Positions 50,846 to 62,074 of a stretch of DNA of 64,000 bases are shown piece after piece (within the stretch, counting starts at the first letter, position 1; the number at the start of each line of letters is the position of its first letter). Under the pieces are notes generated by a model. The model ran no database searches and had not been told where the DNA came from. It saw only the letters and a program-made list of their open reading frames with translations. Both the position numbers and the translations under genes were made by a program. This DNA is from Podospora anserina (lineage: Eukaryota), in assembly GCA_017654855.1 (NCBI GenBank), contig CM030332.1, forward strand, positions 7,254,001 to 7,318,000, in the 5' to 3' direction.

Positions 50846-52350
50846 ATGGCACCAGCCGTAGATGCCGCGACCCGGAAAAGGGTTTTGAGGGTCATCTTTG
50901 TTTCCCTGCTGTTAGACTTGGTAAGCATAACATTTTATTTTGTCTTGGGTCTTGGGGGTGCCTGGCACTTGTACGCATGCTGACAGCTCTTACTTGCCGG
51001 CAGCTCTCCTTTACCTTCATCCTGCCCCTGTTCCCGAAACTGCTCGAGTTCTACCGCAACGCTGAGGCACCGCTCGATGCTTCCGCCCCGGCATCCAAGA
51101 CTCTGCTTTCCGGCGTGCTGGGCTACCTCAATGCGTACAAGGCCGCCTTTGCGCGTCCGATTGAGTCCCGATATGATATTGTGCTGCTGGGCGGGGCTCT
51201 GGGAAGCTTGTTCTCGTATGCAACCCGCTTTTTTTGCTGGCGTATGAGTTCTCCTGTGTTGACATTTTGTGTACCCTTTAGTCTTCTCCAAGCTTTTGCC
51301 TCCCCCATCATTGGTCACCTATCTGATCGCCATGGCCGGCGCACTGCTCTTCTCGCCAGCATGGCAGGCAACATTCTCTCTGTCCTTCTTTGGGTTGTTG
51401 CTGTCGACTTCCGAACCTTCCTCGCCTCCCGAGTTGTAGGCGGTCTCTCCGAAGGCAACATCCAGATCGCTACCGCCATTGCAACCGACATCTCCGATGA
51501 CACCTCCCGCGGCTCCACCATGGCCCTCATCGGCGCATGCTTCTCCATTGCCTTCACCTTCGGTCCGGCCCTGGGTGCTTACCTCTCTACGGTTCCCACC
51601 GTGGCAGCCAACCCTTTCGCTACTGCTGCCTCGTTCTCGCTCTTCCTCATCGTTACCGAGACCGTCTACCTCTGGTTCTCTCTTCCCGAGACCCTCCCCA
51701 AGTTGACCGGCGCAGACAAGAAGAGCACCAAGTCGGAGGCCAAGCCGATTCGCAGAACCAACTCTCACTTTCTCCTCAACTTTATCCACTTCACTTTCTT
51801 GCTGTTCTTCTCCGGCATGGAATTCTCTCTGCCCTTCATGACGTATGATCTGTTTGGATATTCCTCGGCCAGTAATGGTCGCCTGCTTGGCTATGTTGGT
51901 CTTGTTGCCTCTCTCCTCCAGGGAGGTGTCACTCGCCGTCTTCCACCGCTCCTCTCGGTCAAGACTGGCGTGTTGGCTTGCCTTGCTGCCTTTGCCATGC
52001 TCGGTCGCATCACCACCGTCGGTGGTCTGTATCTGGCTGCGACATGCCTCGCTACCACTTCGGCTACTGTTGTTTCTGGCCTGAACGCCCTGAGCAGTTT
52101 CGAGGCGAGCGAGGATGAACGCGGCAGGAAGCTGGGTGTTATGAGAAGTTGGGGCCAGCTCGGAAGGGGCCTGGGGCCAATTCTGTTCACCAGTGTGTAC
52201 TGGTGGGCCGGGAGAGGCACAGCCTACACCCTCGGTGCGACGGGCATTGCGGTGGTGAGTGCTCTGGTGTTGTTCGGGTTGAAGACGCCACCTGGGTCGG
52301 TGAAGGCCAAGACCATGACCTCGTCGAAGGTGGAGAAGAGTGAGCTTTAG
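50846..52350 (+). CDS. MFS transporter (tetracycline-efflux/MFSD10-like)
   Basis: MAPAVDAATRKRVLRVIFVSLLLDL spliced (intron 50921-51003) to LSFTFILPLFP. MFS motif A GHLSDRHGRR. Second intron at about 51217-51280. Confidence 0.9.
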
Positions 52351-52742
52351 TTGGCCGAGGGGAAGAGGTGAGGTTTCGTTGTATCTATTCTCACGTGAAC
52401 ATGTTGACCATAGACATCTAGTGTGACATTTGGACTGTACCTAAACATGAGGAAACAACAAGGGTTTTTTGCTCTCTCTCTCTCTCTCTCTCTCTTTGCG
52501 TGGCTCTCTTCAGGGCTTCCAGAACGACAGACGAGGTTCCAAGTTGACACCTGCGGAGAAAAGATTAGGTTCTGCCATACATGCCCCCCTATCCATTCTC
52601 AAACACCAGAATTTGGACCCCGGGAAGCCTCTCAGCGCCCCATTATCCATTTTATAGATAAGGTACACTCTCCACGCTCTTCCCCATCCCAACCAGCCAG
52701 CCGTGCCTTCCACCTGACCAAGTGTCGTCGTTTCCACCAGGT

Positions 52743-52820
52743 ACCACGTTCCATAGACTCACCACGTTCCATAGACTCACCACGTTCCATAGATTCACCA
52801 CGTTCCATAGACTCAACACG
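52743..52820. repeat. 18-nt tandem repeat (accacgttccatagactc), about 4.3 copies
   Basis: Directly visible. The third copy has one C>T change. Confidence 0.95.
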
Positions 52821-52875
52821 GTACTTAAACTCTAGCACCCGCCACCCAAAGCAACAAAAAAGTGGTCTGCGTGCA

Positions 52876-53010
52876 GCCCTCGTGGAGAAATGGTAACTCG
52901 TCAGCCTCCTAAGCTGAAGACTGCGGGTACGTTAGGGGTTCGATCCCAGCTGGCACCACATTGAAAATTGACCAACAGTTGAGAAATAGGTTCGAGTCCC
53001 GTCGGCGGCG
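52876..53010 (+). tRNA. tRNA-Arg (anticodon CCT) interrupted by a 63-nt intervening sequence in the T-arm
   Basis: Exons 52876-52926 and 52990-53010 form a 72-nt cloverleaf: acceptor GCCCTCG/CGGCGGC (one C:C mismatch), D arm GAGA-AATGGTA-ACTC, anticodon arm TCAGC-CTCCTAA-GCTGA, variable loop AGACT, T arm GCGGG-TTCGAGT-CCCGT, discriminator G. Confidence 0.88.
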
Positions 53011-53023
53011 GTGTTCTTCATCA

Positions 53024-53028
53024 TTTTT
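53024..53028 (+). terminator. Pol III oligo-T terminator of the tRNA-Arg gene
   Basis: TTTTT starting 14 nt after the discriminator base. Confidence 0.65.
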
Positions 53029-53692
53029 GACTCTCTCCTTGTGTTTCTCATACAATTCATTTTTGCCTGCGCCCAAGTCTTGAGCCCGTTGAAGAATCGG
53101 GTGCTCACGTGAGCTCCTTGTCGAAGCTTACATAATGCACTACCTTCCAAGACTGCTGGTTGGCCAAAGACGAACCACCACACCACACCACACTAGCTTC
53201 ATCGGGAAGAGAGACCGAATGGACATTGACAACTGATACGATGCCTTTGTTGAGGCTCATGTTCACATCACATATTCCTTCGGCTCTTTCTTTACGGCCC
53301 ATGATGACACAGCGGATCTTACGAGCTTCCCCATTCGACGCTTCAACCACGCCTTTGCTGACCCGCGAGATGGACTACAAGTGGTGATCCACTCATCACG
53401 GGACGATTTCGGTCCATACGCCGGGCAGACTCGGCCCCCACGCCGAAGCGTATCACCACAGCTCCCATCATCGGAATCACATCTTGATCCGATTGATGAG
53501 TGACTCTGGATCACTGCGGGGCGCTTACACTCCTGGACGGACAGCCACCGCATATCGCAAACCTAAGAAGCAACATTTTGGACGGGCAGGTTCAGCCATA
53601 AAGGTCAGTCGTAGTCCTTGGTTACACGTTAGAATCATAGAATACAACATCTTACACCTTCCAAGATGGCAGCTTGTTCCATATCACGAGTC

Positions 53693-55339
53693 ATGAACCA
53701 TCTTCTGATCCAACTCGTAGCCTTTGCTTGGCTTTCTGAGTCTCCTGCATGGGCGCTCAGCAATGCGTTTGATGTCCGAGAAGCTAGTATCGACAGTGTG
53801 CACAATGCCTTGTTCACCCAAATCACTACCTGCAGAGAGATTGTCTCGGCGTTCATCGCGCGTGTCGAGGAGTTCAACCCAACTGTCAATGCCATCATCT
53901 CGCTGAACCCAGAGGCGTTGTCGATCGCGAACAAGCTGGACGAGCGGATTGCCGCCGGCAACGTCACGGGCTCGCTTTTTTGCATCCCAGTGGTGCTCAA
54001 GGATAACTACGATGCTGTCGGGACGAACACAACGGGGGCTTGCCTTGACCTTGCCAACAGCAAGCCGTTGGAGGATGCCCCGACCGTCACAGCTCTGAGA
54101 AACGCCGGTGCTGTCATTCTCGGCAAGGCAAACCTCCACGAAATGGCTCTTGAGGGCTTGACCGTCTCGTCTCTGGGCGGCCAGACCGTCAACCCGTACG
54201 ACAAGACTCGGACGCCAGGAGGAAGCAGTGGGGGGGCTGGAGCAGCGGTGGCCTCCAACTTCGCCATCTTTGGCACGGGGACTGACACGGTAAACTCGCT
54301 GAGAAGTCCTGCCAATGCGGGCTCGTTGTTTAGTTTTCGCCCTACGAGGGGCCTGATTTCTCGTGCCGGAGTGATCCCCGTCAGCTTCACACAGGACACT
54401 GTTGGCGCGATTGCTCGCAATCCGAAGGATCTGGCTGTTGCGCTGACTGTTATGGCAAGTGTGGGATTTGACCCCAATGATAACGTCACGGCCTTGGTCC
54501 CGCCAGAGGTGCGGGGCAGGGACTATTCAGCCTCGTTGTATGGTGGTAGTCTGACGGGTCGACGGTTCGGTTTTCTAGACGGCTTCTTGAACCATACCGC
54601 CTCTGCCGAGACGACTCCGGTCAACGATGTCATGGCTGACATGGTAGAAAAGCTGAAAGGAGCCGGTGCCACAGTTGTCAACATCACCGAATCCATCTAC
54701 AACACTGTCACCCTTGCAGCCCTCGACGTCCAAATCTACGAGTTCAGGGAGGTCCTCGACGCCTACCTCGCCCGGCCACGACTCGGCGGCTCCCCTCGCC
54801 CAGGCAGCTTCGCCGAGCTGTACAACAGCGGCAGATTCCTCGTCATCCCGGGCCAGTCAGGCATGATTCGATCCTCCCTTGTCTCCTCCACCGCTAACAC
54901 AGCCTATCTCGACTCCCTCCGCAAAATCCAGGACCTCACCCAAGCATTGGACGCAACCTTTGTCAGGAACAACCTCGACGCGTTGATCTATCCCCAGCAA
55001 AAAAACCTCGTCGTCAAGATTGGCTCCCCGTCTCAGAGCGGGAGGAATGGGATTCTGGCCGCGTTGACTGGGCGGCCGGTGGTTCACGTACCGGCGGGCT
55101 TCTCGCCTCCGTCGGAGGACGCGCCGATTGGTGTGCCGATAGGGATGGAGATACTGGGGAGGCCGTTTGCGGAGGGGTTGCTGTTGAATATCGCGAATCA
55201 TATTGCTGAGAAGTTTCCTGTGAGGAGGATGCCGCCGTTTACTAATGGGACGGTGGAGGCGAGGGCGTATGAGAGTGTGCCGGTTATCAGGCCGGATACG
55301 GGGAATATTCCGGGGGTGTATCCTATTGGGGTGTTCTGA
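53693..55339 (+). CDS. Secreted amidase-signature family enzyme
   Basis: Signal peptide, PVVLKDNYD, GGSSGGAG and GTDTVNSLRSPA (Ser-cisSer-Lys triad). Confidence 0.93.
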   Translation: MNHLLIQLVAFAWLSESPAWALSNAFDVREASIDSVHNALFTQITTCREIVSAFIARVEEFNPTVNAIISLNPEALSIANKLDERIAAGNVTGSLFCIPVVLKDNYDAVGTNTTGACLDLANSKPLEDAPTVTALRNAGAVILGKANLHEMALEGLTVSSLGGQTVNPYDKTRTPGGSSGGAGAAVASNFAIFGTGTDTVNSLRSPANAGSLFSFRPTRGLISRAGVIPVSFTQDTVGAIARNPKDLAVALTVMASVGFDPNDNVTALVPPEVRGRDYSASLYGGSLTGRRFGFLDGFLNHTASAETTPVNDVMADMVEKLKGAGATVVNITESIYNTVTLAALDVQIYEFREVLDAYLARPRLGGSPRPGSFAELYNSGRFLVIPGQSGMIRSSLVSSTANTAYLDSLRKIQDLTQALDATFVRNNLDALIYPQQKNLVVKIGSPSQSGRNGILAALTGRPVVHVPAGFSPPSEDAPIGVPIGMEILGRPFAEGLLLNIANHIAEKFPVRRMPPFTNGTVEARAYESVPVIRPDTGNIPGVYPIGVF

Positions 55340-56682: not shown

Positions 56683-59600
56683 CTAAAGAAACCTCGCCAA
56701 CTTCCCCAGCGCTGTCTCCTGCTTCGGTACCACAACCACCTCCTCATACTCAACCTCCTCCTCCTCCCCCTCCGACTGCTCTCCAATCTCCTCCTCTTCT
56801 TCCTCCTTCTTCACCGCAAAGAAATCCCCCAGCGTTGGCGGAAGCATCTTTTGCTTCCCTTTACCCTCCCCAACCCCAACCCCCAAACTCCTCACAGTAA
56901 CCGGGCTCGAACTCAGCAGATCATCCCCCGGCTTCACCGTCCCTGTATCATCATCATTCAGCAAATCCCTGGTTACCGTCCCCCTATCATCCTCACTCAA
57001 CAAATCCTTCTGCTCCTCCACCGGCACAAGCAGCTCCTCCCGCGGCGTAATAACGACAGACTCTAACCCCGCAATCAACTCAGCCTCCGACGCCGAAGTA
57101 GGCTCCCCTTCCGTCTCGAACTGAGCAACGCTCTCCTGCTGCTGCTCATCACCATCATCGTCGTGCTGAAAGAAATGCACAATCTCCCCCCGGTGCACAA
57201 TTCTCCCATCCGCCATCTTGAGAAAGTCGATATCCCGGAGATCAGACTGATGTTCATCATCCTCCACCACCAAACCCTCCCTATTGACAACCTCCTGCGT
57301 CCTCGGCATCTTGAGTTTATTCCCCATCCCCAAATCAATCAAACCATTCTCCCTCCCATTGACAATCCGTCCCAGCTCATCGGGGAAAAGCCAAGGAAAC
57401 GTCACCAACGGCATCGACCTCGCCGTGATCCTCCTCGCATTGATCGTCCCATCTGCGAGCACCTGCGGCTGACGAGCTTGATACAGCGCAATCCGCATCT
57501 CCTCGCAGGTGACCTGGTACATGGCCGCCACAAACGGCCCCAGCTTCTCAAAGTGCCGATCTCCCGCCGCCTTGATGCACTCGGCCCGGAACTGCTCCCT
57601 GAGCGCGGCTGCCTCCCTGCCGACTTTCTCCTGAACCTTGTAGTCGGACCCGACTCGGGGCTTGAACATGACGAACCCGGTCCAGACTTCAAACTCGGTG
57701 CGGATCTCGAGCATGCCGAGGATTCTACGCATGGCAATGTCGTATTGCGTCTTGATCTTGCGTGCTGTTTTCAACACCTCCTGATCGAGCATATACCGAG
57801 ACAAAATCCGTCTGTCAAACGGCGACTGGTAGTTCTTCGTCGAGTCAAAGTCTTGCGTGTGAACCATGTCATAGAGCTGTCCCAAAGCAGTCTTGGAGTG
57901 GTAACTGCCCTTCTGTCTCTCCATGAAGTGAGGCCACGATCTTGGATTTAGCTTCTTGCTCCATTCTGCCGGGACGCCCGTCTTGACATAGTCAACAGCG
58001 ACCGAGTGCTACTATCAGTTAGCAGCTACCCAACATTCAACAGCCACAACCCACAACCCAAACATACCATCTCGGCAAGCTTCAAACACTTCTCACTCTT
58101 CGCCCCCTGCGGCTCCGCATCCGCCGTCGCAAGATGAGCGTGCGCAATAAAAGGCAACCTGTCGTTCTTCATGAACAACACAAAAAACGAGGCCAAACTC
58201 TCCATGATCGACTTCTTCGAGTCACTCGTCACAGGTGGCTGAGGCGTGTGGTCCATAGGAGGATGCGACCACTCCGTTGGCAACAGCTTCTCGTCCCAAA
58301 TGACAAAAAAGTCATCCCCGTCCAGATCACCCCCTGAGCACATGCTCGGCACATCTCTGTCGCCCTCGAGGGGAAAAACCACCACATCACGAAGATGTCT
58401 CAACGCCGGAACGTCCACCGCTTCCACCACGCGAATATCCCCGGGGTGCAGAGAAGGGTTGCGACCAATAATACACAACCCAGCAATAGCCTTGTATCCG
58501 CTCGGATCATCTCGATCAGGAATCTGCAAAAAGATCTGAGGAAGTTGATCCCGCCGTATCCTCTGCCTCCCCTCCGTAGCCTTCGAATGCCCCCTCAGCG
58601 TCCCCGTCTCGTCCACACACCCCAGCACAAAAGCCCCCTTCTCCACCGCCAGCCTCGCCTTCTCCTTGAGCGTCTTCAAAGACCAAGCCCGCCACAGCTG
58701 CAAAACAGTCTTGACAAACGGCTCGTTCGAGTCCATAAACCCGCTCTTGATCATGCGCGCGATGCTAACCGTGGTCATGTTCTCGTCCACAAACGACGTG
58801 AGCATGTCCACCGCGCTCTTCCCGTCCGTCATGGCCCTGTCAAATCTGGATAGCTGCTCGCGCATCAGATCAACGAACACGTGGTCCGGGACACCCAACG
58901 ACGACAGGATCGTGATGGTCTGCCGGTTGAGCGTGGCGCATGAAAAGCTGGAACACCGGACGACCTCCAGACCATTGTACGCAGCCGAGAACTTCTCCTG
59001 AGACGGCCGGATGTGAACCTCCGTTCCCTTGGCGTGCTTCCAACCAACCAGGACTCCTTTGCAGCCGCCCATGCGGAATTGGTACGCTGACGGTGGTGGA
59101 TATACCTGCCAGTCTTCGGCCACCAGCCTGGAGAGCAGAGGAGAAATCCTCCCCACACCATCAGTAAAGCAGTGCTTGCCGTCCGCGGTGTTGATGTCTT
59201 CGATCTCGACGATGGGCGGGAATGTTCCACCCCTCAACACACGCGTGGTCGAGAAACACTGCCCTAGCCGGGCCGCATACTTTGCAACCACCTTGATATG
59301 TTCAAAGTTGCCCATCCACCTGCGAATGTCATCACAACTGGGCACCATGTCCCCCGCATGACTATCAGGCTGACAAAACATGAAAGCTCCATTTTCTCTG
59401 ACTTGGGAGTTCCCAAACGCCAGAAACTTCCAGTGCCACTTCCCCATGCGAATGCCCCAAAAGAGGACTCGATAAACGCGGGTATAGAGGTCATCATCCC
59501 TGTCAGCATCGCTCCCTCTCACCCTCCCCTCCAGCTGCTCATCCGTGAACTGAATGCGCATAAAGTAATTCTGAAAAGTCCAGTAATGCCGAATGACTCG

Positions 59601-61250
59601 GTTGGTCGTCTCGACGGTGGGAGTGCTGAATATGATCTTGGTCGGCGTAACCATAACCTTCCGCACCAGAGCGCAGTAATGAGGCAGCCGGAGTGTGGTC
59701 GGGTAGTAAGTCAACGCCCCTACATCGGTAAGCAGACTCACCGGATCCCAGATCTTCCTTCCCATATCCGCGGCATACTCCAGCACCAAACGTGCTCGCT
59801 GAGGGTCTTGACCCTTAGGATCTGCAAGCTCGAGCAGCTTCTCCAGAAACTCACGCCCAATGCTGTATTCGCACAGGATGCCCTGGGAGATGCAAACCTC
59901 CAGCTGATACCTGACGTCGAACGGGAGAAAGATGGTCGTGTCAGGCCCAAGAGCAGCCAAATCTGCCGCCCATGAGTTTGCCTGAACAGTTGAAGAAACC
60001 ACTTCGGACTCTCTGAGAATAGACCAAAGCTCAGGCTCTCGGTTTGGTGTCTGCGTAAAAGTGGCGTCAGTCGTCTTGATGTTCCAGTCTCGGAGGTCAT
60101 GTTCAATCTTGCTCCACGTGGCGAGGTTGGCATAGCTCAGCTCGATCCAATACGTCGTCCATCGGCCAAAGTCGATTGTATTGGAATACTCGTCAAGAGA
60201 CACCGGCTTTCGATCGCTGCTCTTGTCATTCCTGTCGGTGACATTGACAGCCCGGCACCACATCTCATTCTGCTCCCACGTCGTTCGATCTGCCCAAGCA
60301 GAACCATCCTCGTTCGTCCTTCTCTTCCAGAAGAGCGGGGAGTCCACCAGGGTCAGAACCAAGACGGTGCGCTCTGGGGCGGCATCCACCCGATAAATAT
60401 GCTTGATAACTCCAAACTTGATCTCAATCCGGAATGCTTCCCAGTCCTGCTCAATCTTCAGCGGAAAGCTGATAACGAGCTTCTTCCGCTTAAAGTCCAC
60501 CTTGAGACTGAGACTGGCAGCACGAGGGATCTCCTTCTTCCCCATGTAAACCGTAGGCTCGGTCAAAAGCCCGAAAACAAACTTGTCAAGACCCAGCTCC
60601 ATCTTTTCCGCGCACACGTTTCCCAGCGGTGACTTGATTGTATTCGATTCGTATCGGTACTGAGAGGCAAAATGGGCGTCTATAGTGTGAGGGATGCCTT
60701 TGACCAAGATCTTGCACCTCCCATTATCTATAAAGCTGGTGTCTCTCGGGGGAGGCTCGAATCGTACTTTGCCCGCCCTGGGTCTCCTCACGCTCTCGTC
60801 CAGCTCCACGTAGATAACGTTGCCGTAACCACTAAAGTACTGCTTCAAATCCCAAGGAGAAGTGCCCTCGGGGACATCGCTAAGTATGACGAGGACATTC
60901 TTTCGCTGACCCCATTCAAGGGGAATAATGGCTGGCTGCCGGGGGCCCATCACGGTTGATGCACGCTGCTTGTTTTGGTTGTACTGTGGACGAGACGGAC
61001 GGAGGGCACTACGAGATTGTCCACCGGACTGGTCGCTGCTACATCGACTCCAAGCACCGGCAGCCCCAGGTCGCTGTTGGCGAAACGGGCGCTGGATAGG
61101 CCCTCTGGTGTGGCGAATCATCGGGGGAACATCCTCCGAGGTAGAAGATCGTGAACTCCTGTCAAGCTCGACATCCGCACCCTTTCCGGACTGACTTGAG
61201 GAGGGGCCCACGGATGGTGGTCGCCCTTCAGCGATGAACGAGGGGAGCAT
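56683..61250 (-). CDS. sad-1: Eukaryotic RNA-dependent RNA polymerase, SAD-1/Rdp1-like (RNA silencing)
   Basis: FLAFGNSQ, KYAARLGQCFS, FTDGVG, QFRMGGCKG, RNPSLHPGD and catalytic SGGDLDGDDF. RRM-like N-terminal segment. Intron 58009-58067 joins to HSVAVDYVKTG. The RdRP call is firm; the sad-1 orthology is inference. Confidence 0.9.
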
Positions 61251-61525
61251 TGTAGGAGTTGGATAATAGGGCGTGCCGGGGGGGGGGGGTTGGAGAGAGG
61301 ATGAGGGCTTTAGTGATGATCGGGTGAAAAGATTGAAGTAAAAAATAAGGTGAGAGGGAAGACCATTTGAGGTAGTAATCACGCGCTTGCCAACTTTGAG
61401 ATTGGATCGTTGTTTCCAGGTCGATGGGAAGGAGCGTATCTGTAAACTACTAGGTAGGTCTTGCAAGGCAGTCACCACCCGTTTGCCTGCGCAGTTTGTG
61501 TCGCATAATCTGCAAGTAACCGCTC

Positions 61526-61533
61526 CCTCTCTC

Positions 61534-61592
<59 letters not shown>
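61526..61592. repeat. (CT)n microsatellite upstream of the RdRP gene
   Basis: About 33 CT units with two G interruptions. Confidence 0.95.
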
Positions 61593-62074
61593 TAGCCCTC
61601 CAGGCAGTATCAATCTGAATTCCATTGCGATAACATACCTAAATTCACAAAAGCCACCCGAATCCTTCCTGATATCCCTTCTCTCCAAATTCCCATCTTC
61701 GTCTTCTGACACCTAACAGTGTCCAAGAGCACTCTTCCAGCTCTTGATCCAACGACAGCAACACGGCTGTAAACAAGACCAAAATAAAAACACCCAGTTC
61801 CAATATAAAACAAAAAGCAAGAACAAACAAACTTTTGGGATCTGCCCACCCAATGCTGAAAGCCCCCATTGACGACTGTGCATCCAACACCTCACCAGCC
61901 CGCTTCCATTGCCCCCTATGCTCTTCCACCGAGCCACCAATGTATGCAATGCAGACCCTTCTCCTCTTCGCTATCACCTCCAATGCTCCGTGATCAATGG
62001 TCGCCCAATGCCGTATAAAAATGCTCAGAAACATGTTCGTACTCCGTATCTCGTATTCCGTCGATGCATTTTTT

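Follow-up and report, generated by a model that had tools for sequence, protein, structure and literature searches.

A spliced mRNA-type intron in the T arm of a Podospora anserina tRNA-Arg(CCT) gene carries a second B box and a probable tRNA-gene 3′ end

How does a tRNA gene come to hold a complete B box within the sequence that interrupts it, and does that box do anything for the gene? The question is raised by positions 52876–53010 of a 64-kb window (the whole stretch of Podospora anserina DNA that was analysed, 64,000 nucleotides), where a tRNA-Arg(CCT) gene is split by 63 nt. An earlier reading of the letters, here called the original prediction, held that this interruption carries its own B box and T-loop mimic, which might restore promoter spacing for the transcription factor TFIIIC or might be the remnant of a duplicated tRNA 3′ half that acquired splice signals. 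All positions given here are those of the window, and the exons, intron, promoter elements and tRNA-like block of this gene all lie on the + strand.

The host gene is made up of two exons. Exon 1 (52876–52926) supplies the acceptor 5′ strand, D arm, anticodon arm, a 5-nt variable loop and four of the five T-stem 5′ bases, while exon 2 (52990–53010) supplies the last T-stem 5′ base, T loop, T-stem 3′ strand, acceptor 3′ strand and a discriminator G. Both were delimited by alignment and by ARAGORN, run with introns allowed and on the spliced form, and an Rfam tRNA match also begins at 52876. When 52927–52989 is left out, ARAGORN returns a 72-nt tRNA-Arg(CCT) cloverleaf with a perfect anticodon stem, a variable loop of 5 nt and a T stem of 5 bp, the sole blemish being a C4.C69 mismatch in the acceptor stem. 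The unspliced locus (52876–53010) is an annotation blind spot: ARAGORN under default settings reports no tRNA across the 64-kb window; with introns allowed, it finds tRNA-Arg(CCT) at 52876–53010, wrongly forcing a 65-nt intron to position 37/38; and Rfam gives a truncated tRNA (52876–52940, 30.9 bits against a cut-off of 29) with the T arm collapsed in the alignment.

Comparison with uninterrupted genes places the insert in the T arm. A metagenome scan with an anticodon-arm pattern of tRNA-Arg(CCT) gave at least 120 loci, mostly prokaryotic; one of those listed (L105), an intron-less tRNA-Arg(CCT) gene, is identical to the T-arm-spliced form over 37 nt from anticodon stem to T stem. In a MAFFT alignment of the locus with five intron-less tRNA-Arg(CCT) genes, a single 63-column gap falls in the T-loop region. 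No close fungal orthologue was found among the matches listed (from at least 120 metagenome loci), and exon 1 followed by GTANGT had no match in the metagenome scan. Because of the C4.C69 mismatch, this copy may be decaying or under relaxed constraint, in which case any promoter role would be moot. Other tRNA-Arg(CCT) genes may exist, since the genome account PMC2441463 credits P. anserina with 361 tRNA genes and sorts them into 48 acceptor families, with up to 22 members each.

Removal of the insert is directly established in RNA. Four sequencing runs (X1, X16, X18 and X20), guessed to be RNA, were compared with positions 52300–53700. A 2,520-nt contig from X16 has the joint 52925>52989, omitting exactly 63 nt, with 162 nt on its shorter side; a 187-nt contig from X20, which belongs to a different study, has the same joint with 44 nt on its shorter side. 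Exact removal is therefore seen in two of the four runs, from two studies, while X1 retains the 63 nt and X18 covers the tRNA region solely with an unspliced piece (52938–53104) that leaves exon 1 uncovered. That X18 contig begins one base past the first base of the intronic B box, for which low depth or an internal start may account.

The X16 contig also omits a second GT..AG intron, of 62 nt (53604–53665), which ends right before the ATG of an amidase open reading frame, and then continues through the amidase gene; this second intron is skipped in X1, X16 and X20, so the contigs from all three are RNA. The amidase is 557 aa long here against 593 aa in sister-species records, and its true start codon may thus lie in an upstream exon. 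Clustered at 90% identity, the amidase protein groups with proteins from the Podospora anserina species complex. The runs represent two haplotypes at variant sites 52652 and 52845 (T>G and a 1-nt deletion), with no haplotype difference among them inside the tRNA or the intron. A strain deletion was considered as the cause of the 63-nt skip and rejected, as the alleles do not track it: X16 has the window’s alleles at both sites yet lacks the 63 nt, and X1 and X20 share the other alleles, X1 having the 63 nt and X20 not. The spliced RNAs begin 85 nt or more ahead of the tRNA and extend past the T5 run downstream of it; they belong to the flanking MFS and amidase genes, as read-through products or untranslated regions, and are not Pol III pre-tRNAs. 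Five tandem copies of an 18-nt unit, ACCACGTTCCATAGACTC, occupy 52725–52832 and end 44 nt upstream of the tRNA, and the RNA contigs break at this repeat. Further along the window, on the − strand, an open reading frame of 1,228 aa (58026–61712) has a cellular RNA-dependent RNA polymerase domain (PF05183, E 1e-173), which marks it, by domain content, as an RNA-silencing gene near the locus.

By its ends, its exact removal from RNA, its splice and branch consensus and its length, the insert classes as a spliceosomal (U2-type GT-AG) intron of 63 nt (52927–52989), the length of the neighbouring validated intron being 62 nt. The fungal 5′ splice-site consensus is GTANGT and the branch-site consensus YTRAY/CTRAC. 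The intron, read as GT..AG at the RNA joint, starts with GTACGT (52927–52932) and ends with TAG (52987–52989), and a candidate branch site, TTGAC (52968–52972), has its A 18 nt before the 3′ splice site. By chance, GTANGT would stand at the start of an insert once in 1,024 cases and YAG at its end once in 32. A 3-nt repeat, GGT, at both intron ends makes placement of the junction ambiguous by that much; the intron sits between the T-stem 5′ strand and the T loop of the tRNA, and its removal rebuilds a normal tRNA-Arg(CCT) cloverleaf. No second copy of the intron occurs in the 64-kb window (best other match 13 nt), and Rfam searches with the intron alone and with intron plus exon 2 gave chance-level matches only (E 0.72 to 9.5). 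The 3′ end of the intron, GTTGAGAAAT (52978–52987), agrees in 9 of 10 letters with GTGGAGAAAT (52882–52891) in the A-box/D-arm stretch, a borderline likeness in that 42 of 2,000 shuffles reach its score.

Could the insert instead be a canonical tRNA intron, cut by the endonuclease at 37/38 (52912–52976, 65 nt), with the mimic simply lying inside it? This is exactly the model that ARAGORN proposes with introns allowed, but the program can place introns nowhere else, and the 70-nt product has a variable loop of 3 nt, a G.U pair in the anticodon stem and a T-stem mismatch. The joint in RNA is 52925/52989, not 52911/52977; the intron-less relatives align with the T-arm model; and there is no 4-bp helix between the two junctions of the 37/38 model, hence no bulge-helix-bulge. 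We regard this reading as very improbable. A bulge-helix-bulge intron at the T-arm position was likewise rejected, with no complementary 4-mer between the junctions and no such motif in the folds.

Within this intron, a pattern scan of the window found a B-box match without mismatch, GGTTCGATCCC, at 52937–52947. The original prediction had named GGTTCGATCC at 52937–52946 as a consensus B box, correctly in both coordinates and letters; together with the next C it fits the 11-nt consensus GGTTCGANNCC in full. The exonic B box, GGTTCGAGTCC (52989–52999), also matches the full consensus; the intron’s terminal G serves as its first base and so keeps it perfect in the DNA. These two matches, both on the + strand and 52 nt apart, are the only ones on either strand of the 64-kb window. 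With 0.79 matches expected per window, two or more anywhere arise in 20 of 100 shuffles, while for a single match within a chosen 63-nt stretch of one strand the expectation is 0.79 × 53/128000, or about 3e-4.

The consensus of the A box is TRGCNNAGTGG. The A box of this gene, TGGAGAAATGG (52883–52893), corresponds to tRNA positions 8–19 and agrees with the consensus in 9 of 11 letters, counting the two N. The intronic B box is 43 bp away from it and the exonic box 95 bp, a gap that would shrink to 32 bp if the intron were absent. Nowhere inside 52876–53010 do four T stand in a row, and a T5 run resembling a Pol III terminator (53024–53028, + strand) follows 14 nt past the tRNA end. Human tRNA genes are described in PMC11811891 as having A and B boxes 30–67 bp apart, a range that takes in the 43-bp gap and leaves out the 95-bp gap. 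The same source describes high-affinity binding of the tauB part of TFIIIC to the B box as the anchoring step, after which the A box is found. The proposal that the intronic box restores the A-to-B spacing for TFIIIC therefore holds as to geometry (43 bp against 95 bp, with 32 bp in the intron-less gene), and the idea is mechanistically sound and use of the box by TFIIIC plausible.

The B box proves to be the beginning of a longer tRNA-like block. Positions 52937–52958 correspond to positions 52–73 of a tRNA gene, in the standard geometry for those positions: T loop TTCGATC (52939–52945), T-stem 3′ strand CCAGC (52946–52950), acceptor 3′ strand TGGCACC (52951–52957) and discriminator A (52958). 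This register is directly established by an exact 22-nt match to two tRNA-Phe(GAA) genes (locus L121). In a scan of 185,579 prokaryotic species, one genome each and 596 billion bases in all, the exact 22-mer was found in a single species, Sphingobacterium hungaricum, at the ends of two tandem tRNA-Phe(GAA) genes, where the match runs to 24 nt with the next CA and then stops. Over both strands of 596 billion bases, chance would yield a random 22-mer 0.07 times, but the true significance is weaker, because the first 11 nt are a common tRNA motif; the decisive part is the last 11 nt, for which the rough chance may be as high as several per cent. An 8-bp palindrome, CCAGCTGG (52946–52953), lies inside the block.

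Likeness of AGCTGGCACCA to a tRNA 3′ end had been suggested before, and rightly, although the register differs from the one implied, since the CCA is not a tail. Counted from T54 (52939), a CCA tail would be due to end 23 nt on, whereas that of the block ends after 20 nt. The CCA at 52956–52958 is thus 3 nt too early for a retro-copied mature tRNA end, which we rejected as a source, and consists of the end of the acceptor strand plus the discriminator. It is out of register, too, for the minus-strand primer-binding site of an LTR retrotransposon (TGG plus the complement of a tRNA end). Horizontal transfer from bacteria was also considered and is unsupported: the match ends at 24 nt, and similarity of the flanks to the Sphingobacterium locus is at chance (719 and 830 of 2,000 shuffles). 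We therefore take the exact match as proof of register and tRNA-likeness rather than of bacterial origin.

As RNA, the block lacks partners. The original prediction had noted that neither a T stem nor an acceptor stem pairs up between it and exon 1, and this is borne out: GCTGG and GGTGCCA would be needed, and in their place AGGGG precedes the loop and GCCCTCG forms the 5′ end of the tRNA. Tested in register as a T arm, the block makes two of five stem pairs (G53-C61 and G52-C62), so that no T arm is formed, and with the partner strands missing the fragment does nothing tRNA-like as RNA. The small hairpin also proposed for it does appear in the minimum-energy fold of the intron, with GGG/CCC closed by UUCGAU and five further pairs (−8.6 kcal/mol), but is unexceptional, 164 of 200 shuffles being at least as stable and the centroid leaving it unpaired. 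For the precursor, 176 of 200 shuffles are at least as stable as the native sequence, and the frequency of the minimum-energy fold in the ensemble is 0.007.

What, then, is the block? The reading we prefer, with a probability of roughly 0.55, is that it is a passenger: a fragment from the 3′ end of a gene for a tRNA other than the host, carried inside a spliceosomal intron. Bases 11–32 of the intron would on this account be a sense-oriented tRNA-gene 3′ end (positions 52–73) that most likely came with the DNA that turned into the intron, either as filler DNA taken up when a break in the T-loop region was repaired or within an intron that moved in from elsewhere. The suggestion of a duplicated tRNA 3′ half with added splice signals would survive in its general form, a tRNA-gene end in exact register, and fails in that shuffle tests speak against the host’s own 3′ half and the end is not a CCA-tailed retro-copy. 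The block resembles exon 2 in the T loop alone (98 of 2,000 shuffles reach that likeness), and beyond the T loop the similarity is at chance (1,568 of 2,000). The direct repeat GGT that flanks the insert has a chance of 1/64 given GT and AG, and counts as weak evidence. As DNA, the passenger would have brought a full-consensus B box to a place 43 bp from the A box. TFIIIC should occupy this box no less readily than the exonic one 95 bp away and would thereby allow normal initiation by Pol III despite the interruption, an effect that, like any benefit from it, is hypothetical and may not be under selection. This reading leaves the near-canonical distance of the intronic box from the A box unexplained, and it also has against it that the block’s sole exact match in the prokaryotic scan is bacterial.

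On the main rival view, the intronic B box is a selected second promoter element, favoured because the exonic box had been pushed to 95 bp, with TFIIIC anchored on it and Pol III transcribing the whole gene as in the Schizosaccharomyces pombe U6 gene. Its perfect consensus match, the 43-bp gap inside the human range and the 95-bp gap beyond it, and the anchoring role of the tauB contact (PMC11811891) would all suit such a function, as would the documented U6 precedent (PMC5855946), the lack of any four-T run in exons or intron and the T5 run 14 nt downstream. Against this, the exonic B box is equally perfect in the DNA, 11 nt suffice for a B box and the further 11–13 nt of tRNA-end identity go unexplained, and the C4.C69 mismatch hints at relaxed constraint; we consider selection for a promoter element possible but doubtful. 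A bolder reading takes the locus for a functional nuclear tRNA gene that needs the spliceosome in order to mature. It would be transcribed by Pol III via the intron-borne B box, in the manner of the S. pombe U6 gene, and/or by Pol II read-through, then spliced, with RNase P and RNase Z releasing tRNA-Arg(CCU). This we judge unlikely on present evidence.

Decidedly improbable is a tandem duplication of the gene’s own sequence across the T loop, which would make the mimic the host’s decayed 3′ half, the GTTCGA of the first copy having become the 5′ splice site GTACGT and the T-stem strand of the second copy the AG acceptor. GTACGT differs from the T-loop start GTTCGA at just two positions and MAFFT aligns the two, the blocks 52937–52954 and 52989–53006 are 72% alike, and the 3′ end of the intron can replace the 3′ strand of the anticodon stem, which is why ARAGORN builds its canonical-intron model. 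Nevertheless, likeness at chance beyond the T loop (1,568 of 2,000 shuffles, as above) tells against a duplicate; seven duplication models yield 12–20 identities out of 63, equalled by 91–248 of 500 shuffles; and the offsets disagree, the T loop calling for 52 nt and the stem strand for 65 nt. We give still less credence to two other accounts. If the intron were an ordinary one with a B-box-like string by chance, it would be in keeping with folds of intron and precursor that are no better than those of shuffles (164 and 176 of 200) and with the chance-level Rfam matches, but an 11-mer of this kind is expected at about 3e-4 in a 63-nt stretch, and this one is located in a tRNA gene, in sense orientation, and continues in register as a tRNA end: coincidence on this scale is hard to believe. 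An RNA-level role, in which the T-loop mimic pairs with the exonic T-loop region and so brings the splice sites together, or else recruits tRNA-binding proteins, could appeal to the pairing of about 52935–52943 with about 52992–53000 of exon 2 in the precursor’s minimum-energy fold; that fold is matched or beaten by 176 of 200 shuffles and has an ensemble frequency of 0.007, and such a role seems highly unlikely.

The passenger reading, and the intron itself, can be set against known systems. A full-text literature search turned up no tRNA gene with a spliceosomal intron. PMC12530127 keeps the tRNA introns of eukaryotes and spliceosomal introns apart as separate systems, and the fungal spliceosomal introns in non-coding RNA genes listed in PMC5855946 are those of U1, U2, U5 and U6 snRNA and of ascomycete rDNA, tRNA genes not figuring in that list. 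Like these, the Podospora intron is a GT..AG intron with canonical signals in a gene for a conserved, structured non-coding RNA; unlike it, none of them is reported in that source with a tRNA-gene fragment inside. The closest parallel is the S. pombe U6 snRNA gene, whose mRNA-type intron carries the B block (Frendewey et al., 1990, as cited in PMC5855946), so that the precedent invoked by the original prediction is real. In both cases a gene with a Pol III-type internal promoter has a GT..AG intron with a B box downstream of the A block. According to that source, however, the intronic box is the only B block of U6, whereas the Podospora gene has a perfect exonic one as well; the Podospora host is a tRNA and not a spliceosome component, so the rationale of ‘reverse splicing at the catalytic centre’ is inapplicable here; and the RNAs that show splicing in Podospora are not Pol III transcripts.

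Removal of a canonical tRNA intron (position 37/38, endonuclease and ligase) likewise restores the cloverleaf of a nuclear tRNA, but the Podospora intron lies in the T arm, has GT..AG ends with 5′ splice and branch-like signals, and is joined elsewhere than at 37/38. Bulge-helix-bulge introns at non-canonical positions are known from archaea and from Cyanidioschyzon merolae. They show that T-loop introns of tRNA genes exist, and differ in having no GT..AG ends or 5′ splice-site consensus and in relying on a bulge-helix-bulge, a motif that cannot be drawn for the Podospora intron. T-loop insertions occur in six of the at least 120 metagenome tRNA-Arg(CCT) loci listed (L101, L035, L029, L116, L095 and L074); these loci look archaeal, and their insertions are presumably bulge-helix-bulge introns near the position at which the Podospora gene is split.

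Isolated consensus B boxes around which no tRNA can fold may still be bound by TFIIIC, without Pol III; extra-TFIIIC (ETC) sites, as these are called, are named in PMC11811891. The Podospora box, a candidate for such binding, differs in lying inside a tRNA gene and beside a second box. As to the manner of gain, introns in Daphnia have reportedly arisen through double-strand-break repair with filler DNA, leaving short flanking direct repeats. The Podospora case is similar in its short insert, its 3-nt GGT repeats at the ends and its apparent content of DNA from an unrelated gene.

The locus thus presents a tRNA gene with a demonstrably spliced mRNA-type intron in its T arm, in which a piece that probably derives from another tRNA gene doubles the internal promoter. 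A spliceosome-dependent tRNA, if it proved true, would link two intron systems thought to be unrelated and would assign a promoter role to a tRNA fragment borne by an intron. An active gene would add an independent second example of the U6-type ‘B box in the intron’, along with a tRNA that needs the spliceosome; a dying copy would instead offer a dated view of how a non-coding gene gains an intron, caught while the filler DNA can still be recognised.
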